DNA from: Vampirovibrionales bacterium
GTDB taxonomy: Bacteria; Cyanobacteriota; Vampirovibrionia; Vampirovibrionales; JAGQHJ01
Reading direction: 5' to 3'
Length of the DNA: 57,975 bases
Assembly (NCBI GenBank): GCA_025449835.1
Contig: JANWIO010000059.1
Coordinates: 1-57,975 of the forward strand
Each line of letters begins with the position of its first letter. Positions within the stretch are counted from its first letter, which is position 1. The position numbers and the translations under genes were made by a program. A model generated the notes under the pieces. It was given only the letters and a program-made list of their open reading frames with translations. It was not told the origin of the DNA and ran no database searches. Below are positions 8,492 through 57,975 of the stretch, one piece after another.

Positions 8492-10324
8492 ATGGAAATC
8501 ACCAACCAGTTTTCGTGGATGATTGGCGGCCCGCAAGGAACAGGGGTGGATTCATCTGCCACCTTGTTTATTCGTTCTTGTGCAGTTGCTGGTTTAAACG
8601 TCTACGGAAAAAGAGAATACCACTCCAATATTATGGGAGAGCATAGCTACTTCCAGGTGCGTGTCAGTGAAAATCCTGTTCATTCCCATGTTGATCCGGT
8701 CCATTTACTTGCTACGTTTGATGATGAAACCGCCCGGATTCATGCCCATGAAGTGGTTCCCAATGGCTACTTTTTATATGACGCCAATGTGACCAAACCA
8801 GAAACTCTGGACTTACATCCAGATGTTAAAATCTTGGCCTTGCCTTATTCCCAAATTTTAGAAGAAGTTTCTGCTGAAACAGGCCAACCTTTAGCCAAGC
8901 TGCAAATTATGAAAAATACCATTGCTGTTGCAGCGTCTTTGGCAATGACATGCTTTGAAATTCAGTATATTGAAAAAGCCTTAAAAGGTATTTTTACGGG
9001 TGGCAAGGCAAAATTGGTGCCTTTAAACTTAAAAGTGGCCGAAAAAGCCTATGCTTGCATCACACAAGAAATTAAAAATGCATTTCCATATCGCTTGGTC
9101 GCCAAGCCCGATGCACCAGCTCAAATGATTGTCAATGGAACCACGGCTGTGGCACTCGGAAAATTAAAAGCAGGCTGCCGTTTTCAGTCGTATTACCCCA
9201 TTACCCCTGCCAGTGATGAAAGTGTCTATTTGGAATCTCACCCTGAGTATGGTGTAAACGTGGTTCAGTGCGAAGACGAAATCTCAGCTGTTTGTATGGC
9301 GGTCGGTGCCTCTTTAACAGGGGTTCGTGCTTCAACCTCTTCTTCCGGTCCTGGATTTGGTCTTAAAGCTGAAGGCCTTGGCTGGGCTGGTATTAATGAA
9401 GTGCCTGTTGTGGTTTTCAACTATCAACGGGGTGGCCCGTCTACCGGTTTGCCAACGCGGCATGAACAAGGTGACTTATTATTCAGCTTGTTTATCTGCC
9501 ACGGGGAGTATCCCAAAATCGTTGTGGCCCCTGGCGATATGACAGAGTGTTTCAACGATTCGTTTAATGCTTTTAACTATGCCGATCAATTCCAAACGCC
9601 GGTTATTGTTCTGTGTGATAAAGCATTGGCCAACAACACCGCATCCATTTTGCCTTTTGATGAAACCAATTTAAGAATTAACCGCGGAAAAAGGGCATCA
9701 GACGAATATCTGGCAGAATTGGCAAGTCGTCCTGATTTTAATGGCAAATATCCTCGGTTTGCAAATTCTGAAGATGGTGTTTCAACAAGATCATTGCCTG
9801 GTCAAGAAAATGGAATTTACTGGTGTACTGGTGATGAGCACGATGTCTATGGCCATATTTCAGAAGATCCTGAAAACCGGATTATGATGGATGACAAACG
9901 GATGCGTAAATTGGAACTTGCGGCTAAAACCATTCCACAAGATGAGCAATGGAAGCTGTATGGTCCAGAAAATGCAGACTATACCGTTGTAACCTGGGGA
10001 TCCACTAAAGGTCCGTTACTGGATGCACTGCCGATTCTTCAAAGCGATGGCATTTCCATCAACGTTCTTCAGATTCGGTTAATGAGTCCCTTCCCTGCTG
10101 AAGCGGTTTCTCAGATCTTGAATCGCGCCAAGGTTCGTATCGGTGTTGAACAAAACTTTACCGGTCAATTGGCGAAGATTGTTCGTATGGAAACAGGCAT
10201 TAAAATGGATCATATGGTTTCTAAGTACACCGGTCGTCCGATGTCGGAAACCGAGGTCGTTGCCGCTCTTAGAGAGATTACCAAGCAGAAAACAGAGAAA
10301 GTGGTGTTAACTTATGGTCACTAA
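8492..10324 (+). CDS. korA: 2-oxoacid:ferredoxin oxidoreductase alpha subunit (gamma-alpha fusion)
   Basis: GGPQGTGV, YYPITPAS, EDEI, SSSGPG, QRGGPSTGLPT. Confidence 0.93.
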   Translation: MEITNQFSWMIGGPQGTGVDSSATLFIRSCAVAGLNVYGKREYHSNIMGEHSYFQVRVSENPVHSHVDPVHLLATFDDETARIHAHEVVPNGYFLYDANVTKPETLDLHPDVKILALPYSQILEEVSAETGQPLAKLQIMKNTIAVAASLAMTCFEIQYIEKALKGIFTGGKAKLVPLNLKVAEKAYACITQEIKNAFPYRLVAKPDAPAQMIVNGTTAVALGKLKAGCRFQSYYPITPASDESVYLESHPEYGVNVVQCEDEISAVCMAVGASLTGVRASTSSSGPGFGLKAEGLGWAGINEVPVVVFNYQRGGPSTGLPTRHEQGDLLFSLFICHGEYPKIVVAPGDMTECFNDSFNAFNYADQFQTPVIVLCDKALANNTASILPFDETNLRINRGKRASDEYLAELASRPDFNGKYPRFANSEDGVSTRSLPGQENGIYWCTGDEHDVYGHISEDPENRIMMDDKRMRKLELAAKTIPQDEQWKLYGPENADYTVVTWGSTKGPLLDALPILQSDGISINVLQIRLMSPFPAEAVSQILNRAKVRIGVEQNFTGQLAKIVRMETGIKMDHMVSKYTGRPMSETEVVAALREITKQKTEKVVLTYGH

Positions 10325-49452: not shown

Positions 49453-50439
49453 TTAGAGATATGGCTCTAGTAAAAAGTTCTCTATATCAATATCTTGTGC
49501 CTTAAGATTTAGGCTAAATCCTTTATTGATAGTGGTAATAAGATGTTTTTCAAAGTCTGGGCGAATGCCTTTCTTTCCATGTAGTTTTGAAAAGGTCTTT
49601 AAAACGCTTCTTTTATGCTGATCTAATTGTTTTATGAGGCTTGGTTCATTCTCAATATGCCATAAATGAACTGCTATTTCATCATAACCACACCATTCTG
49701 AAGCCTTATGAGCTAAAAAGCAAAGCAATTTAAATGGTAAAGGGGAAAGTGTAAATGAATGCCCTTTGTAAATTACGATATTGGGAGACTTGAGAACTAA
49801 TGTCTTAAGTTCTGTATCCGTTTCTTTGTTTAGAGGGGATGGAATAGTCAACATAAGAGTTCTTGAATCAAAAATATCTTTAAGTGAGCTTACATAAATT
49901 CCTTCAGCCAATAAAGTAGACTCGATTGACTTATTCCGAGTTGGTTGAGGGAGAAGTAAAAATAATTCTGAGGCATTAAAGTGTCTTTTTGCGAGAGATG
50001 CACTGGAAACCAACAACTCTTTGGCAATATTGCCATAAGCTAAAACCATATTTCGCTGAGGTATAAGCCCAAAGGTATGCCATGGTGAGCAGGATGCATC
50101 CTCATATATGGTTGCACTTACAGAATTTTTGAGCAGCATAAGGAGTCGGTCAAAATCGACTTGAAAACCATTGATGTAGCGTTTATCAATCCATTGTAAG
50201 CCCCGAAGAAAGCCTGTTGGACAGGAAAAATAGGGCTTATTATCCTCATATTCTACCGGTAAAATGCATTGTTCATAGCATTCAAAGCAGTCATAATGTT
50301 TGAACACCAATGGTTTCAAAAGACGATTTTGTTCAAGAAATTGCCTTACCTCTTCAGGCAGCTTTGTAAACTCCTCCTGGTTTAAGGGGTTAAGGGGCAA
50401 TGACTCAAACCAGCAATGGTAAAAGTTGTTGTTTTCCAA
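49453..50439 (-). CDS. Hypothetical protein with N-terminal Cys cluster and C-terminal OmpR-type winged helix
   Basis: CFECYEQC..CP; YKGHSFTLSPLPFKLLCFLA..YDEIAVHLW..ITTINKGFSL. Confidence 0.75.
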   Translation of the reverse strand: MENNNFYHCWFESLPLNPLNQEEFTKLPEEVRQFLEQNRLLKPLVFKHYDCFECYEQCILPVEYEDNKPYFSCPTGFLRGLQWIDKRYINGFQVDFDRLLMLLKNSVSATIYEDASCSPWHTFGLIPQRNMVLAYGNIAKELLVSSASLAKRHFNASELFLLLPQPTRNKSIESTLLAEGIYVSSLKDIFDSRTLMLTIPSPLNKETDTELKTLVLKSPNIVIYKGHSFTLSPLPFKLLCFLAHKASEWCGYDEIAVHLWHIENEPSLIKQLDQHKRSVLKTFSKLHGKKGIRPDFEKHLITTINKGFSLNLKAQDIDIENFLLEPYL

Positions 50440-51559
50440 TCATAATCCCCCATTGAAATAAGTTTTTTTCAATACAGCAGTCAACTTGTGTGTCATTTAA
50501 ATTGGTAGTGTTTGTCTGTGATAGCGTAATGGTTCTATTCTTTGTTCTTCCATTATCCTGAAGGAAGGTAAATTGAATCCATGCTTTTTGGATTACCATT
50601 AAGTTTGGATCAATGTTTCTGGCCCTTAAGGTTTCCTCAACATCTCCCGTGAATCGCAACTCGAAAGTCGTTTTATTTGTGGGAGAGACTTTCCCCCGAA
50701 ATCCAACAATAGCAACATTTACGATTTTATCAATCGGATTGGTTTCAAATTGCCTCAATGTTTTCAGTCGGTGGAGGTTCAGAATGATTTTTGAGTTCTC
50801 TTGTTCGAAGAAATAAGCGTCTTCTAAGTACACGGCGGCAAAGCATTGGCGTGTAATGTCTTCAAAATCCTTACGTTTTGCCTTGATTTTCAGCTTACCT
50901 TCTTTTGGAAAGTAAATAAGGGTTGATTCAAAAATGGGTCGCCGTGGCATTTCTGAGAGGATGCCTTGTTGAAATTCTTTAATGGGCCTAAGGTAGTCTT
51001 CGTTGGTGATTACCATGGTTAAAGTACCGTGTTCTTCATCGAAGTCAGTTTCAGTATGAATATTTTCCCCAAGCTCTTTACCCTTAATGTGGCCTAGAAT
51101 GGCTTGTTTTAGTTCAAACTCTTTTTCCTCAGTCATAATAGAGTTTTTGGGGCTTTTACCAAGATATTCGGAATAGCCTTTCAGGTGATTGAGTCTGAGC
51201 CGACGTCGGGCCATTGTAAATCCCATAGGGTGGTTTAGATAGAGTGTTGCGGAAAGATTCAGTGGCAATACATCATGACGTGGGATTCCGAGACTGTCTG
51301 CAATGAGTATCATATTTTCTAAGCCTTCATCACAGGCCAAGTCATTGATTTGAGTGAAGCAAATATCACATTTCCCTTTTATTTCAGAAGGCAACGCAAC
51401 GTATTGGTCATAAAGAGCTTTGTGTCCTTCTTGCTCAAGGGCTTGGTAAAACTCGCTGTCATCAGGAACACCCATTGTCTTCACAAGCTCCTGCAAAAGC
51501 GACTTATCAATTTGTCTCAAAAAAGCTTTGGGTCGAAATTCTCTTAAGATTCCTTTCAT
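50405..51559 (-). CDS. Hypothetical protein (~384 aa)
   Basis: Long ORF with AGGAG RBS, overlapping the downstream gene; no motif assigned. Confidence 0.8.
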   Translation of the reverse strand: MKGILREFRPKAFLRQIDKSLLQELVKTMGVPDDSEFYQALEQEGHKALYDQYVALPSEIKGKCDICFTQINDLACDEGLENMILIADSLGIPRHDVLPLNLSATLYLNHPMGFTMARRRLRLNHLKGYSEYLGKSPKNSIMTEEKEFELKQAILGHIKGKELGENIHTETDFDEEHGTLTMVITNEDYLRPIKEFQQGILSEMPRRPIFESTLIYFPKEGKLKIKAKRKDFEDITRQCFAAVYLEDAYFFEQENSKIILNLHRLKTLRQFETNPIDKIVNVAIVGFRGKVSPTNKTTFELRFTGDVEETLRARNIDPNLMVIQKAWIQFTFLQDNGRTKNRTITLSQTNTTNLNDTQVDCCIEKNLFQWGIMIGKQQLLPLLV

Positions 51560-51891
51560 AGAACGTCTCTCCTGTATAAATATTACATTTATAACAAAAA
51601 ACAATTTATGTCTTTTACGACAGTCATGTTACAACAAGCTCTTCAGTAAACAAATAAATTTATTGATTTGTTTTGAATTGTAAAGTTAATAGTCATTTAA
51701 CAGATAAATGAATAAACAAAAAGCAGTAAACAACAAATAGTTGATGATATTTTGATTCAGGTTGAAATCTCTTGTGTAGAGCGAGGAAACAGTTTTAACT
51801 AGGTTTTCATGTCCTCCTGAGGATGCAGGTTGGCATGCTTTGTGCTTGAATACTGATACTTGGAAGAGTGTTGATTCAATGGTGAAAGCAA

Positions 51892-54800
51892 ATGAAAATG
51901 GTCAAGGAAACTAAAGTTTCTTCAAGAAGAAAAAGTATTAATAAAACGCTTTATGAGACACATAAGCAACAATCTCTAAATACCAACCTGAAAGGGCAAC
52001 CTGTTAAGAGTAGTCGAACCGTCGTAGTTCGGGTTGCTGATCCAACCAATCCCAGGTTTGTAGATGTAAATCAAAAATTTTCATTTCCAGCCCGAGAACA
52101 GGATATTGCTCTTCTAAAGGATTTATTGAGTGATTTCGGATTGGCACGCCACTCCGTGATGGAAGACATTTGGCAAGACTTTCAACAAAATGAAGCCTTC
52201 TATATCCAGGAAGCACAGGAAGTTGAGTATGCTGAAAAGCATGGAACGAATATAAGCCGTTTTACCACTGAAGAAGGTGAGGTAATTTCTACTCCCTTTA
52301 GTTGCCAAGAATGTCAAAAACCTCTTTATGTTCATTATTATGACCCAATTCAGGATAAGAGTAAAAAGCCAAAACGCTATTATTTTGCAAGATGCATCGA
52401 AGAAACCCACAAACGTGGTATTAAACTATCTGACAAAAAGGATGTTAACGATTCTTCTAAAACTATGTTTGATATTAAAAAGTTTAAAGCCCAGCCATTA
52501 TCAAACCATTTCTCTGCTAAATACATTACTGGTAGTAAAACGAAAAATAGTTATGAAAATTGCTTAAAACCCTTTGAATTACCAAAAATAAAAAGACAAT
52601 GGGAACGTTCTGTTGGCGATTCACTTCGGCAAATTGCAGCTAGGGATTTAGCGGGGTTCCTGGACAAATATTATTCCGTCAAGGAGTCTATTCAAAAAAC
52701 GATTGAACATAATAATAAGCAGATTGATTCCAACAGCCTGAAATATGGGTTATCCAAATACCAAGTTTCACCCTTGAACCTCTCCTTGCTTTCATCTATT
52801 AATGGACGAGATGATATTGACGCTTATAATCGACTTGTCTCTACTTATAATACCTGGCTGAATGAAACCTGTTGGCAACACCCAGAGTATGGAAAAGAAC
52901 TTAAGGAAGCATTGCCTAAGTTAAAGCGTTTAAAAGGCTACCCCTCTTTTCCCATCATTGAAAAAGAGCAAAGTCGTTTTCAATATACGGAAGAAGAACT
53001 TGGACTAAAGTTTGAACAATTGATTGCTGACCTTGAAGCTAACTGGCATGTTCATCTTGAACAGTTGACCGATGGTATGTTTCATAATTTTTTAAAACGT
53101 CACAGTCCTCGGGTTATTTGGAAAAAACTACCAGAATATATTGATGATATATCCCCTCCTAAACGCCTCTATTTGAAAAGAAAAGATGAAAAGCAAAAAT
53201 CCCAAAAACAACCTCTGCAATTCAAAGCGACCGAACGCATTGGAAATTGGCTATTTTATGAGTATAAGCAAAAGAACCAGCCCTTGAAAACAGCGTTGAT
53301 AAATACACTGAAGCGTATTGACCAAAAGATTGGTGTACTGAAATTTCATTATCAGAAACAAAAACAGAATGATAAGGAAAATAGGGATATTCAGTCGTAT
53401 CAGCAACTTATCAAATGGTATCAAGCCAAGACAACCCTTCTTCTCGAAGCCCTCCATCCATCCTTGGATACGACAAGTGAGGAACAGAAAACGCTTTATT
53501 GGGAGGTTATCTCTCAAGCCAAAGATTTGTACGGATTGCTCAGAGGAGACCCTTTCAAAAAGAAATTAGAACGAAAAACATTTGAGGTTGTTGGGTTCTC
53601 ATCCTCTGGGAAAACGGGAAAAACTTCTCTTCAGTACGATGCAATCCTTTCAATTTATATCTCTGAAAAGAATGTACCGGAATATTACTTGCTGCTCCAA
53701 CCCCTGAAAAAAGAGAAAAAATGTAAATTTCTTTTAAATGTTGATGAACGGGTTAATCTGACCAGCCTATCCCCCGGCTGGTATGGTTTTTGGAAGGATG
53801 GAGGTAATGACACAACAGTTTTATCGCCCATGGAAGTGAATTTTACTGAAGAAGCTATTATCAGGCTTCCGTTAATCTTTGGTGAACGTCAAGGACAACG
53901 GTATTTGTGGAACAGAATATTCCCTTTAGCATCCTCAACAGAGATGGGCAAATTTCGACTCATGAATGCTCGTGTCATTGAGCAAAGCCTTGCAACTGAC
54001 TTGAAAGATGAAAGGCTAAGAAATAAATATCGCAAGCAAGAAGGACTTTATATTGCCATTGCTTTTGAGAAGGTGGCAGAACATGGGGTACTGGATGATA
54101 AAAGATGGCAATATCAAACAATTTTAGGAGTGGATCGGGGTGAGAAAATTCCTCTGGTTGCCAGATTACTTGATTTGGATGGTAATCCATTACTTGTAGA
54201 TGTTGAAAATGGACAAGATCCATCGATGGGGATACAAATTGGTGTGGATCATTATGCTATTCAGAAAAAATGGGCTGAGAAAATCAAACAGCAACAGAAA
54301 ATAGGTTCTGCTCAAGTCAATGTGGATAGTAACCGTGGGAAACATGTTGCTGATCAGATGATTAACAATGCTGTAGCCCAACTCTTGGATATTGCTAAGT
54401 CTCATAACGCCTTAATTGTATTTGAAGATTTGTCCAGAGGTTTTGGAAGGAGAGGCTCGAACACATATATGACACTCCAGCAGTATACCCGCTTGGAGGA
54501 TGCTTTAATCCGAAAGGCCCAGGAAGTCGGTTTATATCCAGCTAAAGGAGATCTTTTGACGAACTGTCGCAAGGGGATTTTAGCAAAAGTAATAGCTCAA
54601 CATACCTCTCAAACCTGTTCTGCTTGTGGCAGAATCAATAGCAAGGATGCTCTATCCAAAATCCTATTCTCAACCCTCCATAAAACGGACGGAAATTATG
54701 CTTTGAAACGTCCTGACGGTAGCTTGCTCTCTTTAAAAAAGACTGATTTAACCGAAGAAATAGATAAAATTCTAAAAAATGGACAATCCTTTCAGAATTT

Positions 54801-55224
54801 AACAAAGACAGCCCGTAAAAATTTGGTAAGCCTGCTAAACCAGGAATTACAATATAGACCGACCCAGGATCAGTTTCAATGTTTGTATTGTGACCATAAA
54901 GCACATGCGGATGCCCAAGCAGCCCTTAACATTGGACGAGCTTGGCTTTTTGTGCGGGAAGAGGAGGTCAAGGCTTTTCGAGATAGGAGTTCATTGCCTG
55001 GAGAAGCCAAGGGTAGCCAAGAACATCAGCAATACAAAAAGCAGCAAGAGAAGACTCAAAAAGCCAAAAACACTGGTAGGCATTCGAACGATATCGAGTA
55101 TTATCCAGAGAACGAATCGGAAGATATGCAAGGTGCAAAAGATATCAATCAAAAACAAGTTTCTTATGCAGACTTCTGGAGTCAGTTCTATCAAAAACGT
55201 CTGGAGCAAAAGCTATTTCAGTAG
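51892..55224 (+). CDS. cas12e: Type V-E CRISPR effector, Cas12e/CasX-like (1110 aa)
   Basis: RuvC-I GVDRGE, RuvC-II VFEDLSRGFGR, RuvC-III HADAQAALNIGRAWLF, TSQTCSACG; CasX-type motifs FSCQECQKPLYV..YFARC, LKRLKGYPSFP, LPLIFGERQG, QYTRLED, WSQFYQKRL (compared from memory). Confidence 0.9.
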   Translation: MKMVKETKVSSRRKSINKTLYETHKQQSLNTNLKGQPVKSSRTVVVRVADPTNPRFVDVNQKFSFPAREQDIALLKDLLSDFGLARHSVMEDIWQDFQQNEAFYIQEAQEVEYAEKHGTNISRFTTEEGEVISTPFSCQECQKPLYVHYYDPIQDKSKKPKRYYFARCIEETHKRGIKLSDKKDVNDSSKTMFDIKKFKAQPLSNHFSAKYITGSKTKNSYENCLKPFELPKIKRQWERSVGDSLRQIAARDLAGFLDKYYSVKESIQKTIEHNNKQIDSNSLKYGLSKYQVSPLNLSLLSSINGRDDIDAYNRLVSTYNTWLNETCWQHPEYGKELKEALPKLKRLKGYPSFPIIEKEQSRFQYTEEELGLKFEQLIADLEANWHVHLEQLTDGMFHNFLKRHSPRVIWKKLPEYIDDISPPKRLYLKRKDEKQKSQKQPLQFKATERIGNWLFYEYKQKNQPLKTALINTLKRIDQKIGVLKFHYQKQKQNDKENRDIQSYQQLIKWYQAKTTLLLEALHPSLDTTSEEQKTLYWEVISQAKDLYGLLRGDPFKKKLERKTFEVVGFSSSGKTGKTSLQYDAILSIYISEKNVPEYYLLLQPLKKEKKCKFLLNVDERVNLTSLSPGWYGFWKDGGNDTTVLSPMEVNFTEEAIIRLPLIFGERQGQRYLWNRIFPLASSTEMGKFRLMNARVIEQSLATDLKDERLRNKYRKQEGLYIAIAFEKVAEHGVLDDKRWQYQTILGVDRGEKIPLVARLLDLDGNPLLVDVENGQDPSMGIQIGVDHYAIQKKWAEKIKQQQKIGSAQVNVDSNRGKHVADQMINNAVAQLLDIAKSHNALIVFEDLSRGFGRRGSNTYMTLQQYTRLEDALIRKAQEVGLYPAKGDLLTNCRKGILAKVIAQHTSQTCSACGRINSKDALSKILFSTLHKTDGNYALKRPDGSLLSLKKTDLTEEIDKILKNGQSFQNLTKTARKNLVSLLNQELQYRPTQDQFQCLYCDHKAHADAQAALNIGRAWLFVREEEVKAFRDRSSLPGEAKGSQEHQQYKKQQEKTQKAKNTGRHSNDIEYYPENESEDMQGAKDINQKQVSYADFWSQFYQKRLEQKLFQ

Positions 55225-55306: not shown

Positions 55307-55951
55307 ATGTTTGAAGAAGAAAACCCACTTCTACCTGTTTCCTGGGTTGCTGATTATGCATTTTGCCAATGGGCAGGATATGCTTTCTTTACAGGTTTGG
55401 AAAATTTTGAACAAAAGAATACGGTTTATCAGGATAGCATTGCAGGCCATTTGAGTGTTCATGAGCAACAAAGCCGTTACCGGGAAAAAGGAATTGTTCA
55501 GAAAACGGATGTTTCACTCTCCCATGACATGCTCTACCTAACCGGTAAGGCGGATATGGTTGAGCTTTGGCCTGAAGGGAAAATTGTTCCCATAGAATAC
55601 AAACGTTCCGTTCCTGCCGAAGGGCCACACTTCCATCATCAGGTTCAGCTTTGTCTCCAAGCGCTTTGTCTGGAAAAACAGTATCAAAAGGATATTCCAG
55701 AAGGAGTTATATACAGCATTACCAGCCATCAAAGGGTGCCTGTTCCCTTGACTCCACTATTACGGGAACAAACTCTCAACCTGCTCTCTGAACTCAAAAA
55801 CAAGCTGAAATCTGGAAATCCAAATATGTTCCAAAAACGAAATGATCTGCTCTGCCGACAGTGTACGTTTTTCGAAATCTGCCTTCCACCTGTTTTCTTT
55901 GATGAGTTGAGAAAGACTTCTTCAGATTTTGCAGACCAGGAGGAATTTTAA
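55307..55951 (+). CDS. cas4: CRISPR-associated Cas4
   Basis: DYAFC, LTGKADMVE, PIEYKR, QLCLQALCLE, CRQC....IC. Confidence 0.93.
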   Translation: MFEEENPLLPVSWVADYAFCQWAGYAFFTGLENFEQKNTVYQDSIAGHLSVHEQQSRYREKGIVQKTDVSLSHDMLYLTGKADMVELWPEGKIVPIEYKRSVPAEGPHFHHQVQLCLQALCLEKQYQKDIPEGVIYSITSHQRVPVPLTPLLREQTLNLLSELKNKLKSGNPNMFQKRNDLLCRQCTFFEICLPPVFFDELRKTSSDFADQEEF

Positions 55952-56944
55952 ATGCGATATGATGGTTTGGAGCGTGTCCCCTTATATCTTTACGCAAAAG
56001 AGGATTACTCTTTAAAAAAATATGGCGACTTATTTCGCTTGTTCCGGGGAGAGGAACAAATTCAGAAAATTCCTGCCATTAAAGTAAATGAGATTCTGGT
56101 TTTCGGTGGGCTCACATTAACTTCTCCCGTAATCCAACTTTGTCAAAAGCACAAAATTAATATTCATTTTTTATCCGGTTCTGGCCAGTATCATGGTTCG
56201 CTCATTTTTGATCCAGCTAAGAACCTCTTTATCCGAAAAGCACAAGCTGAAATCCACCTGGATGACAAACGGCGTCTGGAGTTTGCCAAAGAGTTTGTGC
56301 TAGGAAAAATAACAAACCAAAAATGGGTTTTAGACAGTTTTAGAAAAAAACACCGATTTAACCCAAATATTGATTGGAATAAAATTGAATCTCTTGATTC
56401 ACTTCGTGGGGTGGAAGGGACGTATAGTCGCTTGTATTTTCAAGAACTAGCCAAGCAACTTAAAAACACTGATTTTTCCTTCAACGGACGCTCGAAACGC
56501 CCCCCAGCTGATCCGGTCAATGCGCTTTTGAGTCTTGGGTATACTTTCCTATTCAGTCGCCTTTTCTCATATACAACATTGATCGGTCTTGATCCCTATT
56601 TAGGTTTTTTTCATGAAAACTATTACGGCCGTCCTTCATTAGTTTGTGACTTGATGGAGCCATGGAGACCCCTCTTGGTCGATAAATTCATCCTAACGAT
56701 ATTGAATAGGAATGAATTGTCATTGGAAGACTTTGAACGGGTAGACGACAGCATAAAACTGAATAGTGAAGGTTTCAAGAAATTTATTCAGAAGTGGTAT
56801 ACAAACTTTGAGGTAGACAACCATACTTCAGGACGGTTTGAAACAGAACTGACATACCAAAAAGCGCTAGAGCTTGATACAAGGTTATTTGGGAAATCAT
56901 TGACACAAGAGATTGAAGCATATAAGGCTTATACCAGACCATGA
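55952..56944 (+). CDS. cas1: CRISPR-associated Cas1
   Basis: LRGVEG..SRLYF, RPPADPVNALLSLGY, GLDPYLGFFH, SLVCDLMEPWR. Confidence 0.97.
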   Translation: MRYDGLERVPLYLYAKEDYSLKKYGDLFRLFRGEEQIQKIPAIKVNEILVFGGLTLTSPVIQLCQKHKINIHFLSGSGQYHGSLIFDPAKNLFIRKAQAEIHLDDKRRLEFAKEFVLGKITNQKWVLDSFRKKHRFNPNIDWNKIESLDSLRGVEGTYSRLYFQELAKQLKNTDFSFNGRSKRPPADPVNALLSLGYTFLFSRLFSYTTLIGLDPYLGFFHENYYGRPSLVCDLMEPWRPLLVDKFILTILNRNELSLEDFERVDDSIKLNSEGFKKFIQKWYTNFEVDNHTSGRFETELTYQKALELDTRLFGKSLTQEIEAYKAYTRP

Positions 56945-57216
56945 GGTACTTGATTTGTTATGATATTGAGGATGACAAACATCGTAATCGCCTTGTCAAA
57001 GTGCTTGAACAATATGGTGAAAGGGTCCAATATTCAGTTTTTGAAGTACAATTGCCGCCTAGCCTCCTGAAAACATTACGAAAGCGTCTGGTAGCGCAGA
57101 AAATAATAGGTAAACGGGATAGCCTGTTAATCTATCCTCTATGCGAAAGTTGCTACCCTAAAGTTGAACGAACCGGCAAGAACCCTTTGATCAATTCAAG
57201 CGGCATTGTGTTTTAA
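56941..57216 (+). CDS. cas2: CRISPR-associated Cas2
   Basis: YLICYDI.DDK.R, YGERVQYSVFE, DSL.IYPLC. Confidence 0.97.
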   Translation: MRYLICYDIEDDKHRNRLVKVLEQYGERVQYSVFEVQLPPSLLKTLRKRLVAQKIIGKRDSLLIYPLCESCYPKVERTGKNPLINSSGIVF

Positions 57217-57234
57217 TGGCTAAACTGTTATAGT
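57206..57234 (+). promoter_or_regulatory. Candidate sigma70 promoter for the tracrRNA
   Basis: TTGTGT-N17-TATAGT with extended -10 TG. Confidence 0.5.
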
Positions 57235-57251
57235 TCCTTCTGGAGCCACAA

Positions 57252-57340
57252 GCTCTGGGCCATTTATTGGAAACTCTTCCTTTGAGTCCCGAACCCAGCA
57301 CGTAACGTGTATGGACAAAGTTGCTTCCTTACCAAATCTT
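57252..57340 (+). ncRNA. CasX-type tracrRNA (ends approximate)
   Basis: CTTTGA (57280-85) complementary to the repeat 3' TCAAAG; scaffold stem CCAGCACGTAACGTGTATGG (57295-57314); anti-repeat TGCTTCCTTACC (57322-33); located between cas2 and the array. Confidence 0.8.
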
Positions 57341-57554
57341 TTATATTACACATCTAACTGTGTGTTTTGTACTTTGAGAAAAGAATAAGGCGAAAGCCCT
57401 TACCTTATAAGGGTTAAGAAGATTTTTGTAACTTGCAAGGGTTTGTTTTATGAAAATGCTTTGATTGATAAGGGTTTTCAGATTTTAGGGATAAACTTTT
57501 CTCAACTCTTTAAAAGGCCAATGCTAAAAACCCTGAATATACAAGGAAAATGAG

Positions 57555-57975
57555 GTCTGAAACCCTTATAAGGTAAGGAGCATCATCAAAGGTAATCCGT
57601 CGGTTAACAATTTCTAGGATTTCAGTCTGAAACCCTTATAAGGTAAGGAGCATCATCAAAGATACTACTACACGTCAAACAGCGCAAGAGTTTGGTCTGA
57701 AACCCTTATAAGGTAAGGAGCATCATCAAAGTAGAGTTCTGTTGAGGGGTCTCCCGGTGGGGTGACGTCTGAAACCCTTATAAGGTAAGGAGCATCATCA
57801 AAGTAAAGAGCTAGATATGATTGTAGATCTTTACGGCCTAGTCTGAAACCCTTATAAGGTAAGGAGCATCATCAAAGTTATCAACATAGCCACCTTCAAA
57901 ACAAAGACCCACCGTCTGAAACCCTTATAAGATAAGGAGCATCATCAAAGATCAGGATTGCTCTAACGCTCCCAC
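57555..57975 (+). CRISPR. CRISPR array with 37-bp repeat GTCTGAAACCCTTATAAGGTAAGGAGCATCATCAAAG; 6 repeats, 5 full spacers (33, 33, 35, 37, 36 nt) and 1 partial; truncated by the window end
   Basis: Repeats start at 57555, 57625, 57695, 57767, 57841 and 57914; AT-rich leader upstream. Confidence 0.99.

Follow-up and report, generated by a model that had tools for sequence, protein, structure and literature searches.

A predicted tracrRNA gene between cas2 and the CRISPR array of a divergent type V-E (Cas12e/CasX) locus

The DNA segment at positions 57241-57368 (forward strand) is very probably the tracrRNA gene of a type V-E (Cas12e/CasX) CRISPR system, with a core at 57255-57333 and a function predicted from its sequence and surroundings. 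It lies in a window of 57,975 nucleotides (the whole stretch of DNA that was analyzed), which corresponds to the complete contig C59 of an assembly of 2.9 Mb in 167 contigs. Four lines of evidence lead to this identification: homology, covariation, the ability to pair with the cognate repeat, and a promoter-like site that is conserved among related loci. Both the RNA architecture and the locus order are of the known Cas12e/CasX kind, and every defining feature that can be tested in silico was found here. New are the 1110-aa host enzyme, the 5′ extension, loop expansion, swapped stem pairs, repeat tail and short anti-repeat of the guide RNA system, and a set of antisense-repeat modules.

A type V-E locus encoding a large Cas12e

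The last 6 kb of the window carry, all on the forward strand and in this order, cas12e, cas4, cas1, cas2, a gap and a CRISPR array:

51892-55224 (+): cas12e (CasX), 1110 aa; NCBIfam NF045604 and PDB matches
55307-55951 (+): cas4; Pfam Cas_Cas4, E 1.1e-12; TIGR00372, 85.9 bits
55952-56944 (+): cas1; Pfam Cas_Cas1, E 5.3e-84
56941-57216 (+): cas2; Pfam CRISPR_Cas2, E 1.7e-22
57555-57975 (+): CRISPR array, six 37-nt repeats separated by spacers of 33-37 nt, running off the contig

All four cas genes are open and full length. The candidate tracrRNA sits inside the 338-nt gap between the end of cas2 (57216) and the first repeat (57555); the same order of cas2, tracrRNA and array is reported for the Vem, Les, Ckb and Plm2 Cas12e systems in the available text of PMC11685505. 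Just upstream of cas12e, two ORFs of 328 and 399 aa occupy 49453-51604 on the reverse strand, neither of them with a Pfam or NCBIfam match at E ≤0.01.

The 1110-aa product matched the NCBIfam Cas12e/CasX equivalog model NF045604 at 373.7 bits (cut-off, 200), with residues 53-1019 covering positions 16-886 of the 886 in the model. Its closest solved structures are PlmCasX (7way; E 5.2e-85) and DpbCasX (6ny1; E 4.5e-73), both of which it exceeds in length by more than 120 aa, while the matches to VemCas12e and LesCas12e are far weaker (E 1e-27 and 5e-25). In the alignment with dPlmCasX, the 'dead' construct, residues D748 and E845 fall opposite alanines; among 21 relatives, these two are invariant and D1007 is nearly so, corresponding to the D/E/D of RuvC. 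Residues 127-226 align to region 118-210 of PlmCasX, indicating a Cas12e of the NTSB-containing type, which is described alongside the NTSB-less type in the accessible part of PMC11685505. A protein search recovered a small family (60 representatives at E ≤0.001 and 16 at ≤1e-30), in which the only close relatives are three proteins with 57-59% identity, all from Logan assemblies. No other genome with a Cas12e above the cut-off was found among 400 genomes sampled from the phylum, 48 from the order and 400 from the class to which the genome of comparison locus L022 belongs, and a viral scan for Cas12e relatives returned distant TnpB-like matches only. The host enzyme is an unusually large, previously uncharacterized Cas12e within a clade of four sequences.

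The 37-nt repeat is GTCTGAAACCCTTATAAGGTAAGGAGCATCATCAAAG, with the 3′ end TCAAAG. Six copies in the window and five at the end of contig C94 of the same assembly give a count of 11, of which 10 are identical. The array continuation on C94 (29369-29691, locus L050) is in the opposite orientation and comprises five repeats and four spacers, with AT-rich non-repeat sequence after the last repeat. The variant copy is the sixth repeat (57914-57950), where a single change at repeat position 18 turns GGTAAGG into GATAAGG; this base is the one that pairs with the last C of the anti-repeat designated A below, and it also falls inside the pairing with a second anti-repeat, B. The array had 0 matches in 50,697 phage records, nine spacers searched against the organism's own genome gave self matches and short chance matches only, and two spacer 24-mers had 0 matches each among viral contigs, with no PAM derivable.

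Recognition by a covariance model of related tracrRNAs

Metagenome and genome contigs supplied at least 13 Cas12e-type loci that carry arrays with repeats ending in ...AAAG. The long 'CasX proper' type is represented by three of them (the Plm-like L004, L018 and L022), and a short type by the other ten. The tracrRNAs of L004, L022 and L018 were read upstream of their arrays and aligned to build a covariance model, R1, with two helices and no sequence from the window. The best R1 match on both strands of the window was 57255-57326 (+), covering model positions 1-67 of 67 with 29.2 bits and a rough E-value of 0.0013, the calibration of R1 having been short. The covariance comparison with CasX tracrRNAs, which the earlier note had named as a check on its reading, thus favors that reading. 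The runner-up in the 57,975 bases (~116 kb over both strands) reached 11.5 bits, with a similarly rough E-value of 4.5. Across 24 sources (199,569 bases), R1 gave eight matches; those with E <0.01 were the four tracrRNAs, and the remaining four had E ≥1.2. The ten short-type loci have a TATTTA-CTTTGA motif in common but are not recognized by R1. A scan for CTTTGA[GT] preceded by a U tract in the array-less L005, L006, L008, L009, L020, L021, L002, L003, L023 and L024 yielded no convincing tracrRNA.

Sequence-only searches of the window with the tracrRNAs of the three relatives returned nothing with nhmmer and nothing in the core with blastn-short, whose sole match in the gap was a 10-mer at 57370-57379 (E 3.3). 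Rfam, which holds no such family, gave seven weak matches over 57000-57975, all below the gathering score and none of them in 57241-57340. The minimum free energy (MFE) of -23.6 kcal/mol corresponds to a z-score of -0.87, with 39 of 200 shuffles folding equally well, so that folding energy alone is unremarkable.

Closing helix, triplex elements and scaffold stem

The elements of the predicted RNA and its promoter are given below; the motif coordinates claimed in the earlier note were all confirmed by direct reading.

57206-57234 (+): promoter-like site TTGTGT, 17 nt, TATAGT; pattern common to four of four loci, probable start ~57241
57241-57256 (+): putative 5′ extension, absent from relatives; hairpin GGAGC-CACAA-GCTCT possible (MFE fold, promoter distances)
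57255-57260 (+): CTGGGC, by direct reading
57257-57261 (+): 5′ strand of the closing helix P1, GGGCC, pairing with 57286-57290 (model alignment)
57263-57265 (+): first U tract, TTT, invariant in the four loci
57269-57280 (+): expanded triplex loop, five inserted bases relative to the model; GGAA-ACTC-TTCC possible (MFE fold)
57280-57286 (+): CTTTGAG (CTTTGA, 57280-57285), second U tract and partner of the repeat 3′ TCAAAG, invariant in four of four loci
57286-57290 (+): 3′ strand of P1, GTCCC (model alignment, pair counts)
57295-57314 (+): scaffold stem of eight pairs, CCAGCACG, loop TAA, CGTGT, bulged A, TGG (CCAG-CACG-TAA-CGTG-TATGG)
57315-57320 (+): ACAAAG, by direct reading
57322-57333 (+): anti-repeat A, TGCT(T)CCTTACC, facing repeat positions 18-28 (GGTAAGGAGCA); local alignment score 17
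57347-57368 (+): hairpin TACACA-TCTAAC-TGTGTG (57347-57364) followed by TTTT, likely terminator; -7.7 kcal/mol

The first U tract, the loop and CTTTGAG all lie inside P1. In the window, P1 has four pairs and one C/U mismatch, three G-C pairs being consecutive and one more following the mismatch. Its strands read GGC/GCC in L004, GACTC/GAGTC in L022, GTGCT/AGCAC in L018 and GGGCC/GTCCC in the window, with three of the five pairs changed on both sides across the four loci, which bears out the pairing of GTCCC with the 5′ GGGC proposed in the earlier note as a pseudoknot. For the scaffold stem, four of eight pairs have changed on both sides, bringing the two helices together to 7 of 13. Standard pairs fill 80.8% of cells, a share that drops to 23-45% once the 3′ partners are shifted by 1-3 columns, and the covariation score was reached by 1 of 500 shuffles; these values come from four sequences only, in an alignment that was fitted to the model and so leans towards structure. 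From the same alignment, RNAalifold predicted both helices unaided, recovering three pairs of P1 (the outer ones) and seven of the scaffold stem.

Relative to L004, the three inner pairs of the scaffold stem are swapped (CCAGCGAC/GTCGTATGG in L004 versus CCAGCACG/CGTGTATGG in the window), and all three differences are compensated, as had been anticipated for a covarying stem. The stem as a whole takes the form CCAGCACG / CGTGT-A-TGG in the window and CCAGCGAC / GTCGT-A-TGG in L004, and the bulged-A design is kept in L022 (CAAACTC / GAGT-A-TTG). The compensatory nature of the changes relative to L004 suggests selection on pairing.

The Cas12e triple helix is described in the available text of PMC11246509 as two tracrRNA UUU tracts that sandwich the AAA of the repeat. 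The two U tracts of the window, together with the AAA of the repeat UCAAAG, fit the published description as given in the accessible parts of PMC11246509 and PMC11685505, and the repeats of all four loci end in ATCAAAG. The triplex loop is expanded at one site, by five bases in the window and by six in L022. Within the expanded loop, GGAA-ACTC-TTCC could form 4 bp, its last C being shared with CTTTGA. Thus, the extra hairpin of the earlier note exists as a 5-nt loop expansion capable of 4 bp, but it is not unique to the window locus, L022 being expanded at the same place; a modest, lineage-specific expansion is a plausible interpretation.

Cognate anti-repeat and RNA ends

Anti-repeat A forms 11 bp and one bulged U with the repeat segment GGUAAGGAGCA. 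Its specificity was assessed in a 4×4 duplex matrix, in which the 32 nt after each scaffold stem were paired with each repeat. The duplexes with the own repeat measured -17.4 (window), -28.4 (L004), -12.1 (L022) and -21.4 kcal/mol (L018), compared with -4.2 to -12.5 kcal/mol for the non-cognate combinations, and the cognate duplex was the best in every row and column; the window anti-repeat reached only -5.7 to -7.8 kcal/mol with the three foreign repeats. Anti-repeat and repeat thus co-vary from locus to locus, and this preference for its own repeat indicates that anti-repeat A is real and within the family range, on the short side. The anti-repeat originally pointed out therefore stands as regards its specificity, but it is short (11 bp and a bulge), and a perfect 18-nt anti-repeat further downstream (B) had been missed.

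Upstream of the tracrRNA, the pattern TTGnnn-16/17-TAnnnT occurs in four of four loci, and in the window takes the form TTGTGT-17-TATAGT, in line with the promoter-like sequence noted earlier at this place. With only three of six matches in its -35 hexamer, the site was not flagged by a generic promoter scan. The distance from the end of the -10 element to the model match is 21 nt in the window, in contrast to 4-5 nt in the three relatives, suggesting that the tracrRNA should carry a 5′ extension of ~15 nt. The sequence CTGGAGCC (57240-47) is a near-copy of CTGGGCC (57255-61), 15 nt away, and by promoter distance it is CTGGAGCC that matches the start of the L004 tracrRNA in position; a short stretch may thus have been duplicated in tandem where the RNA begins.

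At the other end, the terminator-like hairpin at 57347-57368 has a z-score of -2.71, with 3 of 200 shuffles as good. Its counterpart in L004 is a strong hairpin with T7, while those of L022 and L018 are weak and no better than shuffles; a generic terminator scan did not flag the window hairpin, which is weak and too AT-rich. The best estimate is an RNA of ~128 nt spanning 57241-57368, with a start predicted from promoter position and an end from the hairpin and its T run.

The covariance model, pair counts, RNAalifold, duplex matrix and promoter position all agree with the earlier reading of a CasX-type tracrRNA. Since the perfect 18-nt anti-repeat and two further modules had been missed, its suggestion of direct sgRNA design would hold for the core only; the natural RNA may end elsewhere and have a repeat:anti-repeat stem of another length.

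Proposed mechanism

Homology with solved Cas12e guide RNAs suggests a mechanism in which transcription, the two ends of the RNA, the triple helix, the contacts with the protein and the activity of the system are all predicted. Transcription would start at ~57241 from the TTGTGT-17-TATAGT promoter, which overlaps the end of cas2, and the 3′ end would most likely lie at the hairpin and U run at 57347-57368. Pairing of GGGCC (57257-61) with GTCCC (57286-90) would close a loop holding the U tracts at 57263-65 and 57281-83. Within it, CUUUGA (57280-85) would pair with the UCAAAG at the 3′ end of every repeat, to which the first U tract would add a third strand, making a short triple helix. The REC lobe would hold the RNA by its bulged scaffold stem (57295-57314), and UGCU(U)CCUUACC (57322-33) and the repeat segment GGUAAGGAGCA would form the extended stem. 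The duplex with the pre-crRNA would then be trimmed to give the mature guide, loaded on the 1110-aa Cas12e; in the mature crRNA, a 5′ handle of ~23 nt with ...CATCAAAG at its end would be expected.

Antisense-repeat modules downstream of the core and alternative readings

The remainder of the gap holds further sequence that is complementary to the repeat:

57372-57415 (+): module 2, with CTTTGAG (57372-57378), hairpin GGC-GAAA-GCC (57389-57398) and anti-repeat B (57398-57415)
57429-57444 (+): anti-repeat fragment C, imperfect, repeat positions 6-21; score 17
57446-57482 (+): module 3, with TTTTAT, 7 nt, CTTTGAT, TG and ATAAGGGTTTTCAGA; scores 14 and 23

Anti-repeat B is a perfect 18-nt complement of repeat positions 7-24 and the best in the locus, with a duplex energy of -35.0 kcal/mol versus -17.4 for A; in the genome, its 18-mer occurs only at B and in the repeats. 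A and B are 71 nt apart, which equals the array period (70-74 nt), and have CCTTACC in common; joined, they would give 22 bp with one bulge, continuous as in L004. Module 3 (57459-57482) corresponds to an antisense copy of the repeat with an internal deletion. In total, the gap has five antisense-repeat matches versus ~1 expected (four or more occur in 2% of 300 shuffles). CTTTGA occurs three times on its forward strand (57280, 57372 and 57459) versus 0.12-0.19 expected, and three or more copies were found in 0.025% of 20,000 shuffles. Each of the three is preceded by a U tract and followed by a piece of anti-repeat. Since CTTTGAT is also the start of the antisense repeat, the tracrRNA can be read as an antisense repeat into which a block containing the 3′ strand of P1 and the scaffold was inserted after CTTTGA. 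Among the relatives, CTTTGA occurs twice in L004 and once in L022, and L018 has extra antisense pieces of repeat positions 6-14.

Three simple accounts of this part of the gap were tried and rejected. Module 2 is not supported as a second full tracrRNA, as R1 gave it only 6.0 bits (E 0.35, rough as above, with filters off); a mobile element present in many copies does not explain the 64 nt that separate A from B, there being no other copy in the genome; and a simple 71-nt tandem duplication, judged by eye, leaves the blocks out of register (CTTTGA offset of 17 versus 38).

Modules 2 and 3 are most simply explained as relics of an inverted repeat cluster. A further-reaching proposal, which we consider doubtful, is that the entire cas2-array gap represents an inverted mini-array, now decayed, whose first module became the tracrRNA upon insertion of the scaffold, the other two possibly being functional. 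Modules 2 and 3, B above all, may then act as extra anti-repeats in a read-through tracrRNA bridging two neighboring repeats; alternatively, they may belong to a leader RNA acting in cis, which would fold back on the first repeats and direct the processing of crRNA. If true, this proposal would offer a snapshot of the birth of a tracrRNA from repeats, as well as a second layer of pairing undescribed for type V-E.

The perfection of B would also be compatible with a long form of the tracrRNA or with a role in a leader RNA. Given the weakness of A (-17.4 kcal/mol) relative to B (-35.0 kcal/mol), the true pairing partner and the 3′ end may differ from those proposed above. In the long form, the functional tracrRNA would span ~57241-57430 and build its extended stem mainly with B, making 57334-57397 an inserted, outward-pointing domain within a once-continuous anti-repeat. 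As the top anti-repeat match in the locus, and a perfect 18-mer to a repeat that evolves in concert, B suggests either selection or recent origin; upon cofolding, the repeat pairs with B while the core folds are kept, and the repeat positions covered (7-24) match those of the L004 anti-repeat (12-26, extending to 7). Precedent for an insertion may be seen in the 'outward stem' of VemCas12e, extra and dispensable according to the available text of PMC11685505, and in L018, where a second anti-repeat piece lies ~50 nt past the first with ATGG in common. However, a hairpin and U run separate A from B, the L004 tracrRNA ends directly after its anti-repeat, and A alone is within the family range (-12.1 kcal/mol in L022). 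In addition, B is one of several relic-like antisense repeat fragments, along with C and module 3, is self-paired through a palindrome in the free RNA, and follows a 64-nt insert that is single-copy in the genome. On balance, the long form appears improbable, and the RNA of ~128 nt ending at 57368 is the preferred reading.

The anti-repeat pieces in L018 (9252-9352) are GAAGATGG at 9256-63, ATGGAGTTT at 9311-19 and ATGGAGT at ~9346; the same tracrRNA also contains a second CTTTGA, at 9243.

A different concern is that the gene is a relic, or the locus silent, so that the homology to CasX tracrRNAs is genuine and yet no working RNA is made. The short anti-repeat, the unusual 5′ extension (with the -10 element ending 21 nt before the core, against 4-5 in the relatives), the decayed antisense repeat copies adjoining the gene and the lack of a protospacer for the spacers tried would fit this view. 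This explanation is nevertheless very improbable, as the four cas genes are intact, the catalytic residues of Cas12e are kept, 10 of 11 repeats are identical with varied spacers, and the stem changes relative to L004 are compensatory. Chance resemblance in what would be the 3′ untranslated region of cas2, a terminator and the CRISPR leader might account for the unexceptional folding energy and for a 5′ hairpin (57239-57259) flagged as terminator-like after cas2, but it is practically negligible as an explanation in view of the covariation, the cognate anti-repeat pairing and an R1 match that is the sole good one in ~116 kb and falls within the 338-nt gap on the correct strand.

Comparison with known Cas12e systems and significance

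The systems most similar to the one described here are those of PlmCas12e and DpbCas12e (7way and 6ny1), for which L004 was used as a stand-in. The order cas12e, cas4, cas1, cas2, tracrRNA and array is the same, as is the order of RNA elements in the Plm-like L004 (closing helix, U tract, loop, CUUUGAG, bulged-A stem, A-rich linker and anti-repeat), and both the repeat end ATCAAAG and the NTSB-containing protein are shared with PlmCas12e and DpbCas12e. In contrast, the proteins are only ~30-34% identical, with 1110 aa in the window versus 978 and 986. Relative to L004, the tracrRNA has three swapped stem pairs, a triplex loop longer by 5 nt and a probable 5′ extension of ~15 nt; the repeat has three extra bases in its tail (CATCATCAAAG); the anti-repeat is 11 bp instead of ~20 bp; and additional anti-repeat modules lie downstream.

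The repeat 15-mer was found in none of the paper texts searched; the tracrRNA list of PMC11685505 (Supplementary Data 1) may include a member of the clade. The tracrRNA of Cas12k (type V-K) belongs to another effector family and has another scaffold.

The predicted guide-RNA scaffold should be usable with a divergent, NTSB-type Cas12e that is ~30% identical to enzymes used in genome editing, and with a divergent 1110-aa Cas12e and its scaffold in hand, PAM, activity and orthogonality could be tested. The natural compensations in the stem and the tolerated expansions of the loop and 5′ end point to the parts of the CasX scaffold that vary freely. The tandem antisense-repeat modules, in turn, provide a small, concrete case for the origin of tracrRNAs from inverted repeats.

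[quoted passage not shown] A lineage-specific extra element, the 'outward stem', is described for VemCas12e in the same portion of that source. At L015 (6590-6616), a short-type Cas12e locus, an extra hairpin, CTGTCTC-TTCG-GAGGCAG, directly precedes TTTA-CTTTGA and represents another lineage-specific stem in Cas12e tracrRNAs.
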